A DNA stretch of 64,000 nucleotides from Escherichia coli (lineage in GTDB: Bacteria; Pseudomonadota; Gammaproteobacteria; Enterobacterales; Enterobacteriaceae): assembly GCF_044647545.1 (NCBI RefSeq), contig NZ_CP172818.1, one strand, 5' to 3'. This document shows, one piece after another, positions 9,634-61,123 of this stretch. A model generated the notes under the pieces. That model saw only the letters and a program-made list of their open reading frames with translations. It was not told the DNA's origin and ran no database searches. Each line of letters opens with the position of its first letter. The first letter of the stretch is position 1. The translations under genes and the position numbers were made by a program.

Positions 9634-9718
9634 GAACGAAAAAGGCCGCAGAGTTTCCCCCTGCGGCCTGATCCGGGCGCAAATTGCCATTACGGCAGCC
9701 TGACGCCCACATGACACG

Positions 9719-9826
9719 TTACTTCCGCTTATTCAGCCAGTTCACGATCAGACTGGCAAGAATGCCAGCAATGACCGGAGCCGCTAAATCATGCCAGAAG
9801 GCCATGCCCAGCTCTGCGAGCGTCAT
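9719..9826 (-). CDS. ldrD: Type I toxin LdrD (35-aa small toxic membrane peptide)
   Basis: Minus-strand reading MTLAELGMAFWHDLAAPVIAGILASLIVNWLNKRK (35 aa) from ATG at 9826 to stop at 9719; matches the Ldr toxin family sequence. Confidence 0.8.
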   Translation of the reverse strand: MTLAELGMAFWHDLAAPVIAGILASLIVNWLNKRK

Positions 9827-9871
9827 ATAGCCGCCTGAGTTGTAATGACAACGTTTCGCGGCTATTCTTGA

Positions 9872-9938
9872 GTGGTCTAGAGTCAAGATTAGCCCCCGTG
9901 ATGTTGTCAGGTGCATACCTGCAACGTGCGGGGGTTTT
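9872..9938 (+). ncRNA. rdlD: Antisense antitoxin RNA RdlD (approximate boundaries)
   Basis: Plus-strand GC hairpin (cccccg...cggggg, 9893-9934) followed by TTTT lies in the ldrD 5' leader, where the Rdl antisense RNA is expected; the 5' end is a guess. Confidence 0.4.
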
Positions 9939-10301
9939 CTCTCTCCAGCAACCAATGCCACCAGGGATAAAGCCCCCGCAACATTGCGCCTCACCGGAAC
10001 CTTTCCGGCTTGCCACTGATTCTACGATTGCTTTTTACCGTCAGCACCCGGCAATCTTCCTCATTGCGTGATGCATTCCAGCTTAATTTCTTTATTTGCA
10101 ATAGTTGCAGTTCATATCCGGGCTGACTCCAGACTGGTAGTGAAATGCGCATTTTTGTAGAATTGCGCCTCCTCGCGACCTCCCCAGTGAATCTGTTGCC
10201 TCATTTTTTACATACTGCGTATTCGACTTCTCCACCTGTTGCGCAAGAGAAACTGGGTTTATTCATTTTTGCGAGGCCGACTTCTTTCTGGACAGGACTT
10301 T

Positions 10302-15679: not shown

Positions 15680-17287
15680 TTATTCGATAGAGACATTTTC
15701 GAAGTGATGTTTGCCTAATGGATCAACCACATAGCCTTTAACTTCTTTGCGTACCGGTTCAAACACGGTGGAGTGAGCGATGATCAGTGCCGGAGCCTGA
15801 TCGTGCATCACGACCTGTGCTTGTTTGTACAGTTCAACACGTTTATTGTGGTCGTCGGTAGCACGCGCCGGTTGAATCAGATCTTCAAACGGTTTGTAGC
15901 ACCATTTTGAGTAGTTGGAGCCTTGTTCAGAGGCGGCGCAGCTGAACAGGGTGGCGAAGAAGTTATCCGGATCCCCGTTATCGCCAGTCCAGCCCATCAT
16001 TACCGTCTGATGCTCGCCATCTTTCGCACGCTTGAGGTACTCACCCCATTCGTAGGTGACGATTTTGGCCTGCACGCCCACTTTCGCCCAGTCTGCCTGA
16101 ATCATCTCCGCCATGCGGCGAGCATTCGGGTTATACGGACGTTGTACTGGCATTGCCCACAGGTCGATGGAGAAACCTTTTTCCAGACCCGCTTCTTTCA
16201 GCAAGGCTTTCGCTTTTTCAGGATCGTAAGTGTAGTCCTGAACGTCGTCGTTATAGCCCCACATGGTTGGCGGGATCAGGTTTTTCGCTGATACGCCCGC
16301 GCCCTGATAAACTGCTTTGATGATGGCGTCTTTGTTCACCGCGTAGGTCAGAGCCTGGCGAACTTTCACGTCATCCAGTGGTTTTTTCTGCACGTTATAC
16401 GAGAGATAACCGACATTCAGCCCCGGCATTTCCATCAGGTTGATGGATTTATCCTGCTTCATGCGGGCGATATCTGCCGGGTTCGGGTACGGCATCACCT
16501 GGCATTCGTTCTTCTGCAATTTCGCGTAACGCACGGAAGCGTCAGGAGTAATAGAGAAGACCAGCGTATCGATCTTCGGTTTGGTGCCCCAGTAGCCATC
16601 AAACGCTTTATAGCGAATACGGGAATCTTTCTGGTACTGCTGTAACTGGAACGGGCCGGTACCGATTGGGTTGAGATCCAGTTTTTCCGGTGTACCGGCT
16701 TTCATCATCGCGTCAGCATATTCTTTTGACAGAATAGAGGCGAAGTCCATTGCCAGGTCAGCGAGGAACGGCGCTTCCGGGCGAGTCAGCACAAACTGAA
16801 CGGTGTTATCGTCCACCTTTTTCACTTCGCTGATCAGCTCCGGCAAGCCCATGCCTTCAAAGTATTCGTAGCTGCCGCCAGAAACTTTATGGTACGGGTT
16901 TTGCGCGTTTTTCTGACGATCGAACGAGAACACCACGTCATCGGCGTTCAGTTCGCGCGTCGGTTTGAATTCTTTATTGTCGTGCCACTTCACACCTTTA
17001 CGCAGATGGAAGGTATAGGTTTTACCGTCTTCGCTGACTTCCCACTTTTCAGCGAGGCCCGGGATCACTTCGGTGGTGCCGATTTTAAATTCAACCAGAC
17101 GGTTATAAAGCGGTACGGAAGAGGCGTCATAGGTGGTGCCGGAGGTAAACAGCTGCGGGTTAAACCCTTCCGGAGATCCTTCTGAGCAATAAACCAGAGT
17201 TTTAGCCTGAACACTTGCTGCGACGGTCATAGCCACCAGGCTGAGACCAAGCTTCAGCATCCCTGACTTTTTCAAGGAAATACGCAT
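15680..17287 (-). CDS. dppA: Periplasmic dipeptide-binding protein DppA
   Basis: 535-aa ORF with N-terminal signal peptide (MRISLKKSGMLKLGLSLVAMTVAASVQA); solute-binding protein family 5. Confidence 0.9.
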   Translation of the reverse strand: MRISLKKSGMLKLGLSLVAMTVAASVQAKTLVYCSEGSPEGFNPQLFTSGTTYDASSVPLYNRLVEFKIGTTEVIPGLAEKWEVSEDGKTYTFHLRKGVKWHDNKEFKPTRELNADDVVFSFDRQKNAQNPYHKVSGGSYEYFEGMGLPELISEVKKVDDNTVQFVLTRPEAPFLADLAMDFASILSKEYADAMMKAGTPEKLDLNPIGTGPFQLQQYQKDSRIRYKAFDGYWGTKPKIDTLVFSITPDASVRYAKLQKNECQVMPYPNPADIARMKQDKSINLMEMPGLNVGYLSYNVQKKPLDDVKVRQALTYAVNKDAIIKAVYQGAGVSAKNLIPPTMWGYNDDVQDYTYDPEKAKALLKEAGLEKGFSIDLWAMPVQRPYNPNARRMAEMIQADWAKVGVQAKIVTYEWGEYLKRAKDGEHQTVMMGWTGDNGDPDNFFATLFSCAASEQGSNYSKWCYKPFEDLIQPARATDDHNKRVELYKQAQVVMHDQAPALIIAHSTVFEPVRKEVKGYVVDPLGKHHFENVSIE

Positions 17288-17857
17288 TATTCTGCTCCAA
17301 TTGTGATGTTTGTTGTTTTAACCCTTTGCAGTGGGTTGTCGCCGCCTGACCTTTTTTGTTTTTTGCCCGGTCGGGTCAACGTTATGAGGTGGGGATGCCG
17401 TACTAATTAACATCAGTGTAACAGTGCGGATCCTCCAGAAAATGCCCCTCGTGACCTACAATCTGTCAACAGAATGTGAAAACGTCAATACAGCCAACCG
17501 GGATTTACACCAACGGTGAGAATCAACAAACAAAGATTAAAAAAACTTCAAACAGCTATTTGCAGCAGAGAAATTTGTGCTACGCCAACACAACCAGAAC
17601 AATCAGCTTAATATTTAGCAACATTTGGTGATTAAGTTTTATGCATTTAATGAAAAAAATCTGAGGTAAAGGTGGATATCTGAGCGATTAATACCATGAA
17701 CGCTAAAACGCACAGGGGAAAATGCCAGCGCCAGCCATAAGTAACGCAAAAAAAGATTTAAGCAAATATAAAAAAAGACAATGGTTTCTGTCACAAATCC
17801 GTTAATGGATAGTGAGATATGGGGCGCAAATTTGGCAGGGAAATGTGTGGTGTGTAG

Positions 17858-17960
17858 ATCGGATAAGGCGGTCGCGCCGCATCCGACAATGGGCCGGTAC
17901 ATTTGCCTGATGCGACGCTGACGCGCCTTATCAGGCCTGCATCGAGTCGAACCTCCTTGT
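17858..17960. repeat. BIME/REP element (two inverted REP units)
   Basis: ggataaggcggtcgcgccgcatccgaca followed by gcctgatgcgacgctgacgcgccttatcaggcctgc; matches the REP consensus pattern (GCCGGATGCGGCG...CTTATCAGGCCTAC). Confidence 0.6.
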
Positions 17961-18139
17961 CCCCCGATAAGACCGGTATTTCAATCACCACATGAGACTT
18001 CAGACGCATACAAGCTCTGCATCAATTAGCATGCTAATTTCGCCTTTGCAGTGACAGCTGATATACACGTGCTTCTGGCCAGCCCTGCGGCCTTTAACAG
18101 GTCAGACTGGCAGTGTCCGCACCTCAGGTTCTGGATGAC

Positions 18140-18690
18140 TTTCGCTTTTTCTCCAGCTCCAGGCCCTTTTTTTCCAGGAGATGCTCCTGCATGGCTTTCA
18201 GATATTCATTTTTGGGCGGAAAATACGCGGGTCTTTTTTTCTCTCTTTCCGGGTTCTGTTTTCCTCGTTTTTATGGGTGTCATCAAAAAGGGGTTTGCTT
18301 TTCTCCTTCCTGCGCCTTAAAAAGGCCTCATCACCAGATTTTTTGGTTCCTTTTTTCCCATTTTTTAACCGGTTTTGGGTGGGGAAGTTTAAACCGGGGG
18401 GCGCCCGGGGGAGAGACACAATAACCGAGAGGATAAAAAAACACGCAAAGTTTTTTTTTTGGAGAAAAGAGCGCTGGTGTGTGTGTACAATGGTGTGAGA
18501 GGGGGGAGGAGAAAAAAAAAAAATATAGTGTGGGAGGGGGGGGTGTGAAAGAGGTAATATTGTTGTGGTAGAGAAGATATGACGACATGAGGGGAGGTGA
18601 TGTTTTATGGGGGGGTGTTTTTTTTAATATATGTGTGTTATATACTGTGCTTTTAGATGTGAGATAATGTTTGATATATGGGCAGTTCAT
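18140..18690. other. Anomalous low-complexity, homopolymer-rich, C-depleted tract (non-coding; probable artefact or foreign/synthetic insert)
   Basis: Runs of T (up to 10), A (12) and G (8), GT dinucleotide repeats, near absence of C on the plus strand after about 18470, and no plausible ORF; composition unlike the flanking E. coli sequence. Confidence 0.6.
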
Positions 18691-18765
18691 GGCGCGTCTT
18701 ATCAGGCCTACGTCGAATCGAACCTCCCCGCCCCCGGGGGTTCTCTTCCTCATGAGCTACAGATG

Positions 18766-18794
18766 CAAAAAAGCCTGCTCGTTGAGCAGGCTTT
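18766..18794 (-). terminator. Rho-independent terminator of proK
   Basis: Hairpin gcctgctc-gttg-agcaggc followed by a T-run on the minus strand, 8 nt downstream of the tRNA 3' end. Confidence 0.7.
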
Positions 18795-18801
18795 TCGAAT
18801 T

Positions 18802-18878
<77 letters not shown>

Positions 18879-18969
18879 AATGCGGGGCGCATCTTACTGC
18901 GCAGATACGCCCTCGTCAATCCCTTAATAGCAAAATGCCTTTTGATCGGCGAGAAAGTCAGCAGGCTTC

Positions 18970-20661
18970 TTAGTTAGCCGCTGCCTCTTTTGCCTGCGGG
19001 ATGTGGCACCAGTTGTTGTTTTCGTTAATTCCACCATCCGGTGAAGTATAGCCAAGACACCCCATGATGGTGTCGTACAGCTCTACATGACGGCGTGGCA
19101 CTTTCATGTCGGCTTCTTTTTTCAGCTGCGCAAATGCCTGCGCATTGACCGGATTTTCCAGATATTTATCCGACATCCAGACCATCATCGGCACACGGAA
19201 CTGTTCCGGCGGTGCCAGTTCACGCGGCGTGCCGTGCAGGTGCTCGCGTTCATTAATTGACTCACCGTGGTCAGCTGCATAGAACACAATCGCTTTCTTA
19301 TCGCGAACCTGATCAATCACGCTGGAAATAAAGTGATCCACATAGGTCACCGAGTTGTCGTATGAGTTGATCATCTGCGCTTTGGTACAGCCGCTATCAA
19401 CACCAATACATTCCGGCTTCCACTGCGCAAAGCTGCGCGGGTAACGCTGGGTGTAGTTAAAGTGTGAGCCTTTGGTATGCAGAATGATCAGATGCTTACC
19501 ATCCGGGTTGCGCCCCAGCGACTGCTGCATTTCGTCTACCAGCAACATATCATCTACCGGTTTGCCACGGTTACGTGGCTCCGCACCAATCTGCTCACGA
19601 TAAGCAATGTTGTCCGCCATCGTATTGCTGTAGAACCACATTTCGCTTTGCATAGCGTAGAGATCAGAAGTGAATCCTAACTGCTTCAGCACCGCGAAAA
19701 TATTCTGTTCTTTTAATGTGCGCTGCGGATTATCTTCTGCTCCACCCTGACGTACAAACATGCAACGCAGTGAGAGTTTGGTTGCAGTATCACAGGAGTA
19801 ACCACGGAACGCCGCCAGATTTTTCTCCTGAGCCAGTTTCGGTGTGGTATTGCGTTCATAGCCGAAAATGCCCATATGATCCCAGCGCGTGGTTTCACCA
19901 ATAATGAAAACGACATATGTATCATCAACGTTTTGTGGAGCCTGGTACGTAAACTTCTTCGCAGGGTTAAGGAGAGAATTGTTATCGGAAGATTCATCGA
20001 CCCGCGCCCAGGCATAAAGACCTAATGCCGAAAGCCAGTTTGATGGCAGATAAGAGTTCGCGACGACGCCGCCATAACTCGGCAAATCAACACCTGTCGC
20101 CCTCTCCACTTTCTTCTGCTGGATATCCAGCAAACGAATCGGTGCCCAAACCATAATACCTGCCAGTACGACGACCGCCAGGCTGCGAATACGCTGCCCT
20201 GGGGTTCGCAGTTGTCGGAGCAAGGTGTAACGACAGCGGTTATTCCAGATAAGGATAAGAGGCAACGCGCTTACGGCGATTAACCAGAGAATAAAGTTCA
20301 GACCAACAACTTCTTTTGACAGGTCGATATCGGTGGTCATGACGGATGCGATGATGCCATAACCAATGACTACATTAAGGAAGGTCATGTAATAGCTGGC
20401 ACCTGCGGAAAAGAGCACCACCAGCGATGCCAGAATACGCCAGCTGCGGCGGCCAAACAGCGAAAGAAGACGTAGTAAAAAGAAGGTCACCAGTACGGTG
20501 GCAGCCAGTTCAACAACAGCAGAAATGCCTTTCCAGACGGTAAAATCGTGCGCATAGCTGCCGAAACGGCGGTAAAAAACCGCGCCATTCATAAAAAGGC
20601 CAATATAGATTGCAAGCAAAAAGCTCAGCTTCTGCTGTGTAATCGATTTGATGTATCTCAT
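18970..20661 (-). CDS. eptB: Kdo2-lipid A phosphoethanolamine transferase EptB
   Basis: ORF 18970..20694 trimmed to [14 protein letters not shown] (563 aa); N-terminal TM helices plus a sulfatase-type catalytic domain. Confidence 0.85.
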
Positions 20662-20882
20662 GCAAACAAACCCTGGACAAACAGGTGATAACACCCTGCT
20701 TAGCGGCTTTTCAGGCCCGGCAGGGGAAAAGTGCGGAGGTAGTCAGATAAGTAAAATCTACACGCGCGAATAAGTAGACCACAGCAAAGGGAAAAAGTGT
20801 GGGGAAAGAGTGTGCATGAAGCACAAATTTACAAAAATGCAAGTTTGAAAAGAGACTTTAGCGTTACAAAAAGCAGTAAAAA

Positions 20883-30234: not shown

Positions 30235-30447
30235 ATGTCTGGTAAAATGACTGGTATCGTAAAATGGTTCAACGCTGACAAAGGCTTCGGCTTCATCACT
30301 CCTGACGATGGCTCTAAAGACGTGTTCGTACACTTCTCTGCTATCCAGAACGATGGTTACAAATCTCTGGACGAAGGTCAGAAAGTGTCCTTCACCATCG
30401 AAAGCGGCGCTAAAGGCCCGGCAGCTGGTAACGTAACCAGCCTGTAA
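30235..30447 (+). CDS. cspA: Major cold shock protein CspA
   Basis: 70-aa [73 protein letters not shown]; RNP1 motif KGFGFI and RNP2 motif VFVHF. Confidence 0.95.
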
Positions 30448-30474
30448 TCTCTGCTTAAAAGCACAGAATCTAAG

Positions 30475-30502
30475 ATCCCTGCCAAATGGCGGGGATTTTT
30501 TT
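30475..30502 (+). terminator. Rho-independent terminator of cspA
   Basis: Hairpin atccctgcc-aaat-ggcggggat followed by TTTTTTT. Confidence 0.7.
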
Positions 30503-30635
30503 ATTTGTTTATTCAGGAAATAAATAATCGTTCGCGTAATAAAATCTATTATTATTTTTGTGAAGAATAAATTTGGGTGCAATGAGAATGCGCAACGCCG
30601 TAAGAAAGGCGGGAATAACTTCCCGCCGAAGACGC

Positions 30636-30788
30636 TTACTCTTTCAATTTGCAGGCTAAAAACGCCGCCAGCTCATAATTCTCCTGTTTAATATGCAATT
30701 CACACAGTGAATCTCTTATCATCCAGGTGAAAAATAAAAGCGTGAAACAAATCACTATTAAAGAAAGTAATCTATATTTCTGCGGCAT
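30636..30788 (-). CDS. hokA: Type I toxin HokA (Hok/Gef family small membrane peptide); locus disrupted by IS150
   Basis: 50-aa reading MPQKYRLLSLIVICFTLLFFTWMIRDSLCELHIKQENYELAAFLACKLKE; the IS150 left end begins 33 bp upstream of the start codon. Confidence 0.8.
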   Translation of the reverse strand: MPQKYRLLSLIVICFTLLFFTWMIRDSLCELHIKQENYELAAFLACKLKE

Positions 30789-30867
30789 TCCCAGCCTCCT
30801 GTGTTGATTTCCACCGAGTATGTACTGCACCCATTTTGTTGGACGATGAAATGGAATAGCCCCTGAT

Positions 30868-31389
30868 ATGTCAAAGCCAAAATACCCTTTTGAAAAGCGC
30901 CTTGAAGTCGTGAATCACTACTTCACTACTGATGATGGTTACAGGATCATCTCGGCACGTTTTGGTGTCCCCCGAACCCAGGTCAGGACATGGGTTGCCC
31001 TCTATGAAAAACATGGAGAAAAAGGTTTAATTCCCAAACCTAAAGGTGTTAGTGCTGATCCAGAGTTGCGTATTAAGGTCGTGAAAGCTGTGATCGAGCA
31101 GCACATGTCCCTTAATCAGGCTGCTGCTCACTTTATGCTTGCTGGTAGTGGTTCTGTAGCCAGGTGGCTGAAGGTTTATGAAGAGCGCGGAGAAGCTGGT
31201 TTACGCGCGCTCAAGATTGGCACCAAAAGAAACATTGCAATATCAGTTGATCCAGAAAAAGCGGCATCAGCATTGGAGCTGTCAAAAGACCGACGTATTG
31301 AGGATCTTGAAAGGCAAGTTCGATTTCTTGAAACGCGGCTTATGTATCTAAAAAAGCTGAAAGCCTTAGCTCATCCCACGAAAAAGTGA
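30868..31389 (+). CDS. insJ: IS150 transposase OrfA (InsJ), HTH DNA-binding protein
   Basis: 173-aa ORF MSKPKYPFEKRLEVVNHYFTTDDGYRII...; IS3-family OrfA. Confidence 0.9.
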   Translation: MSKPKYPFEKRLEVVNHYFTTDDGYRIISARFGVPRTQVRTWVALYEKHGEKGLIPKPKGVSADPELRIKVVKAVIEQHMSLNQAAAHFMLAGSGSVARWLKVYEERGEAGLRALKIGTKRNIAISVDPEKAASALELSKDRRIEDLERQVRFLETRLMYLKKLKALAHPTKK

Positions 31390-32237
31390 AAGTACTCAAC
31401 GAGCTAAGGCAGTTTTATCCTCTTGATGAGCTTCTCAGGGCTGCGGAGATACCGCGCAGTACGTTTTATTACCATCTAAAGGCTCTCAGCAAGCCTGACA
31501 AGTATGCGGACGTTAAAAAGCGTATTGGTGAGATTTATCACGAGAATAGAGGCCGATACGGATACCGTAGGGTAACGCTGTCTCTTCATCGAGAAGGGAA
31601 ACAGATTAACCATAAAGCTGTTCAGCGCCTGATGGGAACCCTCTCACTTAAAGCAGCGATTAAGGTCAAGCGATACCGCTCTTACAGAGGAGAGGTAGGG
31701 CAAACCGCCCCTAATGTTCTCCAAAGAGATTTCAAGGCTACGCGGCCAAACGAGAAGTGGGTTACCGATGTTACTGAATTTGCAGTCAATGGGCGCAAGC
31801 TGTATTTGTCTCCAGTAATAGATCTCTTCAACAACGAAGTTATTTCTTACAGCCTTTCGGAAAGACCAGTGATGAACATGGTTGAGAATATGCTCGATCA
31901 GGCATTCAAAAAGCTTAATCCTCACGAGCATCCTGTTCTGCACTCTGACCAGGGATGGCAGTATCGTATGAGAAAATATCAAAATATTCTTAAAGAACAT
32001 GGTATTAAACAAAGCATGTCCAGAAAAGGCAATTGTCTGGATAATGCTGTGGTGGAGTGTTTCTTTGGAACCTTAAAGTCGGAGTGTTTTTATCTTGATG
32101 AGTTCAGTAATATAAGCGAACTGAAGGATGCTGTTACGGAATATATTGAATACTACAACAGCAGAAGAATTAGCCTGAAATTAAAAAGTCTGACTCCAAT
32201 TGAATATCGGAATCAGACCTATATGCCTCGTGTTTAA
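31386..32237 (+). CDS. insK: IS150 transposase OrfB (InsK), DDE integrase catalytic domain; expressed as an OrfAB fusion by -1 frameshifting
   Basis: 283-aa ORF in the -1 frame relative to insJ; DDE-type motifs; slippery A_AAA_AAG at 31349-31355 within the overlap region. Confidence 0.85.
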
Positions 32238-32473
32238 CTGTCCAACTTTTTGGGGTCAGTACACACTTTGATTTATAGTCAGGTGGGGCTTTTCTCTGTC
32301 TGCCTTTCGGTGAATACCTGAGACAAACAGTCTCAAGCACCCGTGGCTATTCTAGCTTAATAAGTTCGTTTCTTCTCCTTGATATAATCCTAAAAAAATC
32401 TCATAAAATTAATATATGAGACAATCTTTATTCAGCAGAAGATTATTAAAGGTTGCTCTATTATTTAGCGATA

Positions 32474-32502
32474 AAAAAGCCTGCCAGATGGCAGGCTTTT
32501 TA
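32474..32502 (-). terminator. Rho-independent terminator of glyQS
   Basis: Hairpin gcctgccagatggcaggc flanked by A-run and T-run (U-run on the minus strand), 13 nt downstream of the glyS stop. Confidence 0.75.
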
Positions 32503-32514
32503 ATAACGACGTTA

Positions 32515-34584
32515 TTACTGCAACAGCGAAATATCCGCAACTCGCAGGAATAATTCGCGCAGTTTCTCCAGCATGGTAAGACGGTTGATTCGCAATTCTT
32601 TGTCATCAACCATGACCATCACTTTATCGAAGAAGGCATCAACCGGTTCACGCAGCTCAGCCAGTTCGACCAGCGCATCCTGGTAACGACCTTCAGCAAA
32701 GTACGGCTCTAGCTTGTCACGTAGCACCACAACCTGCATCGCCAGTTTAATTTCTTCCGGCTCTTTCAGAGTAGAGGCATTCACGCGGTCGCTCAGCACT
32801 TCGTCAGATTTCGCCAGAATGTTAGATACACGCTTGTTCGCCGCCGCCAGTGCTGCAGCTGCATCCAGGGTACGGAAGTGCGATACCGCTTTCATTCGGG
32901 CATCGAAATCAGCCGGACGAGTCGGACGACGCGCCAGTACCGCCTGGATGGTGTCAACGGTGTAACCTTCGTCCTGATACCAGGCGCGGAAGCGACCGAG
33001 CATAAAGTCGATAACATCATCAACCACGTTGGCATTAGTCAGCTTATCGCCATACAGACGCACTGCTTCTTCGGTCAGGGTTTGCAGGTCAAGATTGAGG
33101 TTCTTCTCAACGATAATACGCAGCACGCCAAGTGCGGCACGACGCAACGCAAACGGGTCTTTGTCGCCTTTCGGATGCTGGCCGATACCGAAGATACCCG
33201 CCAGAGTATCCATCTTGTCAGCAATCGCCAGCGCACAGGCTACCGGGTTAGACGGCAGGTCATCACCGGCAAAGCGCGGCTGATACTGCTCGTTCAGCGC
33301 CACGGCAACATCTTCCGCTTCGCCATCGTGACGCGCGTAGTGCATCCCCATAACGCCCTGGGTGTCGGTGAACTCGAAGACCATGTTGGTCATCAGGTCG
33401 CACTTGGACAGCAGGCCCGCACGGGTTGCGTGGTTAACGTCAGCGCCAATCTGTTCAGCAATCCAGCCAGCCAGCGCCTGGATGCGGTCAGTTTTGTCGC
33501 GCAGTGTACCCAGCTGTTGCTGGAACAACACGGTTTGCAGGCGCGGCAGGTTATCTTCAAGACGTTTTTTACGGTCGGTATTGAAGAAGAACTCGGCATC
33601 CGCCAGACGTGGACGAACGACTTTCTCGTTACCGGAGATAATCTGCTGCGGATCTTTCGATTCGATGTTGGCAACGAAGATAAAGTTCGGCAGCAGTTTG
33701 CCGTCGTTCGCATACACCGGGAAGTATTTCTGGTCACCTTTCATGGTGTAAACCAGCGCTTCAGACGGCACCGCGAGGAATTTCTCTTCGAATTTTGCGG
33801 TCAGCACAACCGGCCATTCCACCAGCGAAGCGACTTCTTCCAACAGGCTTTCGCTTAAGTCAGCGTTACCGCCAATCTTACGCGCCGCTTCTTCGGCATC
33901 GGCTTTAATCTTCGCCTTACGTTCTTCGTAATCGGCGATGACTTTCCCGCGCTCACGCAGAATTTCCGGATACTGATCAGCATTGTCGATAGTGAATTCC
34001 GGCTCGCCCATAAAGCGGTGGCCGCGAATCACGCGATCGGACTGAATGCCCAGAATGGTAGCCGGAATAACTTTGTCGCCCAGCAGCAGGGTCACGGTGT
34101 GCACCGGACGCACGAAGTGCACGTCGCTTGCACCCCAACGCATCAGTTTCGGGATCGGCAGTTTCGCCAGCGAAGTCGCAACCATATTCGGCAGCAGTGC
34201 TTCGGTGCTTTCGCCCTTCACGTGGGCGCGATACAGCAGCCATTCACCTTTATCGGTAGTCAGACGCTCAGCCTGGTCAACGGTAATACCGCAACCACGC
34301 GCCCAGCCTTCTGCCGCTTTGCTCGGTTTGCCTTCAGCGTCGAACGCCTGAGCAATCGCCGGGCCGCGTTTTTCGATTTCACGATCCGGTTGCGCTTCCG
34401 CCAGGTTAGCTACTTTCAGCGCCAGACGACGCGGAGCAGCAAACCATTGAACGGTGCCGTGTGCGAGGCCAGCGTTATCCAGCTCCGCAGTAAAGTTCGC
34501 AGCAAAGGACTCAGCCAGGCTGCGCAGTGCTTTTGGTGGCAGCTCTTCAGTGCCGATTTCCACCAGAAAAGTTTTCTCAGACAT
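32515..34584 (-). CDS. glyS: Glycine--tRNA ligase beta subunit
   Basis: 689-aa [23 protein letters not shown]...; directly downstream of glyQ. Confidence 0.95.
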
Positions 34585-60777: not shown

Positions 60778-61123
60778 TCCCTCACGCCGGGGCTTCATTG
60801 CCCCGGCACTACGAATTGATATGTTCCTTGCTGTAACGTCGCTTCCACGCAGCTGGCGTTAAGCCGGTGTGTTTGCGAAAAATCTGCCGGAAATAGCCGA
60901 CGTCATTAAACCGTATTGCCTGGAACAGGCCGACAACGGCGAGTCACTGCATAACCTGTGGCTGCCCGCCGATGCGCCATTTACGACATTTGAAGGTAAT
61001 GGATTGTTCCGCCATAAGATCTTAATCCAGGCACCGGGTTACCGGTATGAACAGAGCAATCCAGAGCAGCAACCGCTGTGGCATTACGACAGTGCGCCAG
61101 CCGCACCGACATCCACCGGTGAA

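Follow-up and report, generated by a model that had tools for sequence, protein, structure and literature searches.

The 64-kb window (the whole stretch of DNA that was analysed) contains, between dppA and proK, a native BIME, a tract of 762 nt at 17921-18682 and a unit that leads through the proK terminator into proK itself, with eptB beyond. The features are collected in Table 1, where L001 denotes the homologous locus in NZ_CP033850.1, which served as the reference for the IS comparison.

Table 1. Features of the window from dppA to eptB, with positions in the window.
Feature	Position	Strand	Remarks
dppA	15680-17287	minus	535-aa ORF, named from annotation of the homologous locus
Native BIME	17857-17920		Complete REP, followed by the 5' half of another in inverted orientation (GCCTGATGCGACGCTG)
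Copy A	17921-18048 (repeat match starts at 17919)	+	Noisy pseudo-copy: REP 3' half, proK-distal spacer, proK terminator
IS1397-family segment, very probably corrupted	18039-18682	minus (transposase reading strand)	Corresponds to L001 2895-3546, the orfA-proximal 652 nt
IS right terminal inverted repeat, last 7 nt (CAGTTCA)	18683-18689		Intact; identity to L001 3549-3555 resumes
Right target-site duplication TGGC (REP loop)	18690-18693		L001 flanks are ...GACGCTGGC/IS/TGGCGCGTC...
Copy B, genuine native unit	18694-18801	+	100% identical to NZ_CP033850.1
REP 3' half of copy B	18694-18711	+	Part of the native unit
tRNA T-arm-like stretch TCGAATCGAACCTCC	18713-18727	+	Inside copy B, with the spacer after it
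proK terminator hairpin	18769-18795		End of copy B; hairpin prediction
proK, tRNA-Pro(CGG)	18802-18878	minus	ARAGORN; Rfam tRNA, 60.7 bits
eptB	18970-20694	minus	Beyond proK; ORF and annotation of the homologous locus

The BIME is recognised by the Rfam model naRNA4 (RF02564), against which 17857-17937 scores 63.3 bits, above the gathering score of 59.5; the K-12 BIME scores 69 bits. The 3' half of the second REP within this match belongs to the suspect copy A, and a T-to-C change there breaks one stem pair. The left copy of the target duplication reads TGAC in the window (17919-17922), versus TGGC on the right. At the other end of the locus, the native unit holds at 18713-18727 (GAATCGAACCTCC) a stretch that resembles the T-arm of proK (GATTCGAACCTCC) at 18817-18829, 102 nt onward, a likeness which suggests that the proK-distal spacer was perhaps derived from an old partial duplication of tRNA/RtT type.

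A preliminary description of this DNA had reported that two imperfect copies of the same unit of about 90 bp, one on each side of an anomalous tract, share the REP 3' half and similar sequence downstream of it. A repeat search recovers these segments where they had been placed, as a 46-nt direct repeat (17919-17964 and 18690-18735, 771 nt apart) with 38 of 46 positions identical (83%). The first ~22 nt of the repeat are REP 3' half, which is common genome-wide and follows the REP consensus, and this is the part that would speak for mere chance or for the generic likeness of any two REP-flanked regions. The remainder does not fit such a reading. The non-REP motif TCGARTCGAACCTCC occurs at two places only in the 64 kb, both of them in the repeat; TCGA[G/A]TCGAACCTCC, also non-REP, is found at these two sites only in the window with one mismatch allowed, 0 being expected from 100 shuffles; and the window contains no further CTTATC[AC]GGCCT[AG]C site elsewhere. 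A simple global alignment of the two copies is poor past 46 nt; with gaps allowed, a local alignment extends the similarity, via ‘CATGAG...CAGATGCA...’ and a terminator-like part, over 17987-18048 versus 18747-18803. This is the tail ‘catgag...cag...gca’ of the preliminary description, and its gapped score of 35 compares with 12.7 +/- 2.2 for shuffles, none of 2000 of which reach 35 (~10 sd), and is attained by only 2 of 2992 chunks of the window. With a non-REP 15-mer confined to these two sites and an extension of this strength, similarity by chance can practically be dismissed. The gapped similarity takes copy A to ~130 nt (~17919-18048), at ~72% identity with indels, a span equivalent to the entire native sequence that begins at the REP loop and ends at proK's first base. 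The repeat itself thus stands, as does the joining of its second copy to the terminator hairpin and then tRNA-Pro(CGG), while the unit is longer and copy A more diverged than had been described.

What is native at this locus was determined in a search set of 5426 complete E. coli genomes. In about 218 of these, one place covers at least 80% of window 17300-19000, and in the best 30 of the ~218 the matching place includes, between dppA and proK, a complete ‘IS3 family transposase’. The IS of NZ_CP033850.1 is exactly 1432 bp long (L001 2124-3555), the canonical length of IS1397, and has the inverted repeats TGAACTGAACCCCAAA and TGAACTGCACCCCAAA, i.e. TGAACTG[A/C]ACCCCAAA, and a 4-bp TGGC duplication. 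The layout of the insertion in these relatives is GACGC-TGGC-[IS]-TGGC-GCGTC, at the centre of the REP loop; when the IS and one TGGC are taken out of L001, a perfect REP (GCCTGATGCGACGCTGGCGCGTCTTATCAGGCCTAC) results, and the empty site so reconstructed matches NZ_CP033635.1 at 100%. A 404-nt empty-site query finds one place with at least 80% coverage in 4593 of the 5426 genomes, and K-12 (NC_000913.3) has the empty site in a slightly different allele (...CTGACGCGTCTTATCAGGCCTACGTCGAGTCGAACCTCCCTGCCCCC...). The transposase CDS of the reference is annotated with a programmed frameshift, its orfA encoding 173 aa; the cluster names of OrfA are generic only (‘transposase’, ‘IS3 family’), and the left 161 nt of the IS are ~95% identical to loci carrying the NCBI annotation ‘IS3-like element IS1397 family transposase’. 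Judged by these genomes, the native order of the lineage is REP 5' half, TGGC, IS1397-family IS, TGGC, REP 3' half, unit and proK, the native unit being a single copy on the proK side.

Several earlier claims are settled by this comparison. The tract does sit at a REP, the relatives carrying their IS in the loop of exactly that REP. It does not natively lie between two copies of the unit: IS-occupied (~218) and empty-site (4593) genomes alike show copy B only, one copy is native, and no reference has both at this spacing. The suggestion that foreign material was inserted by recombination at a REP was right in pointing to mobile DNA and wrong about the route, because the IS transposed, leaving the 4-bp TGGC duplication.

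The tract itself stands where the relatives have the 1432-bp IS. The window is 100% identical to NZ_CP033850.1 (FDAARGOS_497) up to 17920, the BIME at 17857-17920 included, so that 17920 is the point of departure from the relatives, and again from 18683 onward. With the ldr repeats and IS150 left out, the flanks hold at most 2 differences in ~58 kb, compared with 141 in the 644 nt of 18039-18682, which bears out the description of the tract as anomalous. This segment is colinear with L001 2895-3546, and its likeness to IS1397 is evident (79% overall identity to the reference IS and 100% over 18076-18195). Identity nevertheless falls along its length, in 40-column bins, from 1.00 (18076-18195) to 0.80, then 0.75-0.85 and 0.62-0.68 (18468-18660), before it returns to 1.00 at 18683. 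The IS segments L001 2124-2680 and ~2763-2880 are skipped, and the tract is ~670 nt shorter than the IS. The window thus does not hold a complete IS: only 7 nt of the right end are kept, no left inverted repeat is present, and the right junction is intact while the left is replaced by copy A. Nor does it hold a frameshifted orfA/orfB transposase, since stops or frameshifts interrupt all three minus-strand frames of the tract, leaving no more than fragments such as KKSGDEAFLRRRKEKS.

The differences within 18039-18682 are of a peculiar kind. The 107 substitutions comprise 42 transitions and 65 transversions; 5 create C and 42 remove it; and 67 copy the neighbouring base, where 49 are expected. 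C makes up 12% of the tract, GC skew is +0.66 to +0.78, and homopolymer runs of at least 5 number 16, versus 2 in the reference segment. Such inflated homopolymers and low C are confined, within the 64-kb window, to 18150-18700. Mismatches in orfA are spread over codon positions 1, 2 and 3 as 32/29/33, with 28 indel columns, and the tract shows no trace of selection. A natural diverged relative of the IS, brought in by recombination, was considered as a source and rejected in view of the even distribution over codon positions, the many indels, the missing open frame and a best match to the tract of 80% identity among the 5426 complete genomes. An exact search of metagenome contigs with a 37-mer of the tract gave no hit.

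Seven ORFs of 72-140 aa on both strands (17791-18927) overlap 17925-18700, each with at least 74 nt in the tract, and a 98-aa ORF (18631-18927) has only 52 nt within it. The products of the seven (the 98-aa ORF left out) are absent from a collection of 15 billion proteins, so that a gene predicted here would be an artefact of annotation.

Copy A has a composition of its own. It matches the K-12 empty-site allele at 41 of 46 positions and the window's own copy B at 38 of 46. When window 17901-18048 is aligned to three templates, all of it follows the continuation of the empty site, the K-12-type allele best; 17937-18027 simultaneously follows IS-internal L001 2680-2763, and L001 ~2880-2900 is blended into copy A as well. 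Copy A holds the exact IS-internal 22-mer CCCCCGATAAGACCGGTATTTC; its private changes relative to the native allele, CCTgCaTCGAGTC (CCTgCaTCG) and CCtTGtCCCCC, are the bases of the IS-internal strings CTGCAGCGAGTC and CATGTTCCCCC; and its end, TTAGCATGCTAATTTCGCCTTTGCAG, mixes terminator (TTGAGCAGGCTTTTCGAATTTG) with IS (AGCATACTTGTCCTTAGCCTTCTGCAG). We therefore judge that copy A is not native but, in all appearance, a mixture, base by base, of an internal piece of the IS and the native unit from REP to terminator. A blend of two unrelated templates points to a confused consensus or generator and not to a duplication.

Database searches gave no natural counterpart. In the 5426 complete E. coli genomes no place covers at least 80% of copy A and no match to it reaches 90% identity, and its exact 25-mer and 33-mer are absent from 100,044 GTDB species genomes, the 25-mer also from JGI metagenomes. 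Taken together, exact 25- to 37-mers from copy A and the tract gave no hit in the GTDB species genomes or JGI metagenomes. A natural diverged allele or a foreign donor for copy A was rejected on these grounds.

A window-wide assembly problem was likewise considered and rejected: the window is clean apart from the tract, IS150 looks natural and the right-end junctions are shared. Some differences from NZ_CP033850.1 do occur elsewhere. Only one ldr-type repeat unit (type I toxin) is present at 9636-10026, where NZ_CP033850.1 has four in tandem (period ~484 nt), and the window is ~1450 nt shorter here, which could reflect natural copy-number variation or a collapsed tandem repeat. IS150 (30817-32263), beside hokA, has the K-12 orientation and is inverted and displaced by ~43 nt relative to NZ_CP033850.1, with identical flanks; it has 17 mismatches to the NZ_CP033850.1 copy and ~11 to that of K-12, mostly transitions, and no complete genome exceeds 99.2% identity over 30300-32800. 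Breakpoints at 60912/60913 and 61102/61103 are seen against an AraC-regulator/MFS/GH127 island of NZ_CP033850.1, and the remnant arrangement of the window, araD ... yiaT-yiaU-yiaV, is colinear in 3703 complete genomes, so that this is an ordinary island polymorphism.

Considering what could have produced the tract, the native architecture of the relatives, the uniqueness of the tract and its pattern of errors are all observed, and from these we infer a technical cause: the tract is very probably the technical corruption of a REP occupied by IS1397, and the repeat an artefact of the sequence with no cellular event behind it. The course of events would be as follows. A 1432-bp element of the IS1397 family (IS3 family) would have transposed into the distal REP loop of the dppA-proK BIME, duplicating TGGC, and the body of this IS would then have been unfaithfully reproduced in the window, a low-fidelity tract of 762 nt (17921-18682) taking its place. 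The start of the tract would be a noisy continuation of the empty site, from REP 3' half through the proK terminator, interleaved with IS-internal bits, and this would be copy A; the tract would then run colinear with the last ~650 nt of the IS, its error rate climbing from 0 to ~35% with homopolymers inflated and C lost, until perfect sequence returned abruptly 7 nt before the end of the IS. The spectrum of errors appears unlike mutation by any known bacterial process, and the flanks are identical to those of genomes with the same insertion event, which leaves no evolutionary time for the tract to decay; the ‘later degeneration’ that had been proposed is thus contradicted by flanks with ~0 differences over ~58 kb beside so dense and so non-biological a pattern of change. 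An error rate that rises and bases that stutter look like the work of a dying read; blended junctions and skipped IS segments look like a faulty gap fill or consensus. The corruption may stem from a poor read, gap filling, a mis-join in the consensus, mis-assembly or in silico noise. Of the ‘duplication or mis-join’ proposed earlier, the mis-join comes closest to the evidence and the duplication falls away.

Two observations count against this explanation or part of it. IS150, the other multi-copy element of the window, looks clean, and a general failure at repeats is therefore not evident; and a single decaying read would not be expected to give a tract ~670 nt short from which two segments of the IS have been skipped. 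Part of the tract could go back to a genuine deletion inside the IS. The mixed case, in which a real IS1397 remnant, internally deleted and without its left end and parts of orfB, was overlaid by poor base calling that gave the garble and copy A, would account for a length of 762 nt and not 1432, for the missing IS 2124-2680 and ~2763-2880, for the perfect IS sequence at 18076-18195 and for the intact right IS end and target-site duplication. It is nonetheless unlikely, because the deletion junctions are garbled blends with no clean joins and the complete-genome searches found no such remnant at this site (best tract match 80%). It would also make copy A and the repeat artefacts, so that the verdict on the repeat would be unchanged.

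The repeat is real as a string, and a fully biological origin for it would start from that statistical reality, from the status of REPs as known targets of recombination and transposition (PMC1525189) and from K-12, which natively duplicates the proK-distal unit around RtT; a segment with the REP 3' half and the proK-distal unit would have been duplicated, or recombination between REPs would have brought in foreign DNA, with later decay of the left copy and the enclosed IS by mutation. This was the main reading of the preliminary description. We regard this as very unlikely, and the repeat as a product of the 762-nt non-biological tract. A genuine duplication should be seen with both copies at the homologous locus, and its divergence should match its surroundings; neither is found, divergence being ~22% inside the tract and next to nothing in the ~58 kb of flanks shared with genomes that have the same insertion. 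The identity gradient, excess of transversions, loss of C and inflation of homopolymers are unlike mutation, copy A has no natural allele in the 5426 genomes and is blended with IS-internal sequence, and in K-12 the duplication is found on the opposite side of the REP, with 100% identity between its copies, a spacing of 171 nt and RtT, not an IS, between them. That the tract is real DNA of another kind, namely an IS1397 remnant shaped in one very recent lineage by local polar hypermutation together with template switching between the IS and the REP-proK unit, the hypermutation arising for example where a break made by the transposase primed a repair synthesis prone to error and slippage, is very improbable. 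Such a process, itself without precedent, would leave the left copy a hybrid and the errors graded and biased to homopolymers, and nothing in the present data supports it.

On the favoured reading of technical corruption, the true left junction would be GACGCTGGC/TGAACTGAACCCC, followed by the full 1432-bp IS, and there would be no copy A. The sequence of 17921-18682 should be treated as unreliable, unfit for annotation and interpretation and for comparative or evolutionary inference, and the seven short ORFs as spurious or altered by the corruption.

Among known systems, the tract shares with low-quality read tails and with gap-fill and consensus errors the confinement of errors to a multi-copy element between perfect unique flanks, as well as the rising error rate, stuttered or doubled bases, inflated homopolymers and a hybrid of two templates; it differs from them in that the other IS of the window is clean and in that the tract is shorter than the IS. 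The RtT duplication of K-12 offers a second comparison. In NC_000913.3 (L004 2860-3116), two identical proK-distal units (TCGAGTCGAACCTCC...terminator...TTCGAATT), each of which contains 19 nt copied from the 3' end of proK, form a direct repeat beside proK and flank RtT (RF00391, 101.3 bits). There, however, both copies are on the proK side of the REP, identical, with starts 171 nt apart, and enclose RtT; the lineage of the window has one copy of the unit, the extra copy in the window is on the dppA side of the IS and ~72-83% identical, and RF00391 finds nothing at E<=1 in 17300-19000 of the window. Since the two repeats are unlike in position, spacing and content, a duplication of the K-12 type was rejected as an explanation of copy A.

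The closest parallel is IS1397 in the REP loop of a BIME. IS1397 has been shown experimentally to be REP-specific and to insert in the REP loop (PMC1525189), and an IS1397 example in CFT073 has the same central cut of the REP (PMC1525189, Additional file 13). The element of the relatives agrees with IS1397 in its length of 1432 bp, its IS3-type TG...CA inverted repeats, its orfA/orfB with programmed frameshift and its central position in the REP with a 4-bp duplication. The reference copy departs from copies annotated as IS1397 in sharing only ~95% identity with them over the 161 nt that were aligned. The window differs in having only a corrupted 3' portion of ~650 nt, without left inverted repeat or intact ORF. 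The arrangement underlying it, in which an ST648-like lineage carries an IS1397-family element in a REP loop adjacent to proK, is already known.
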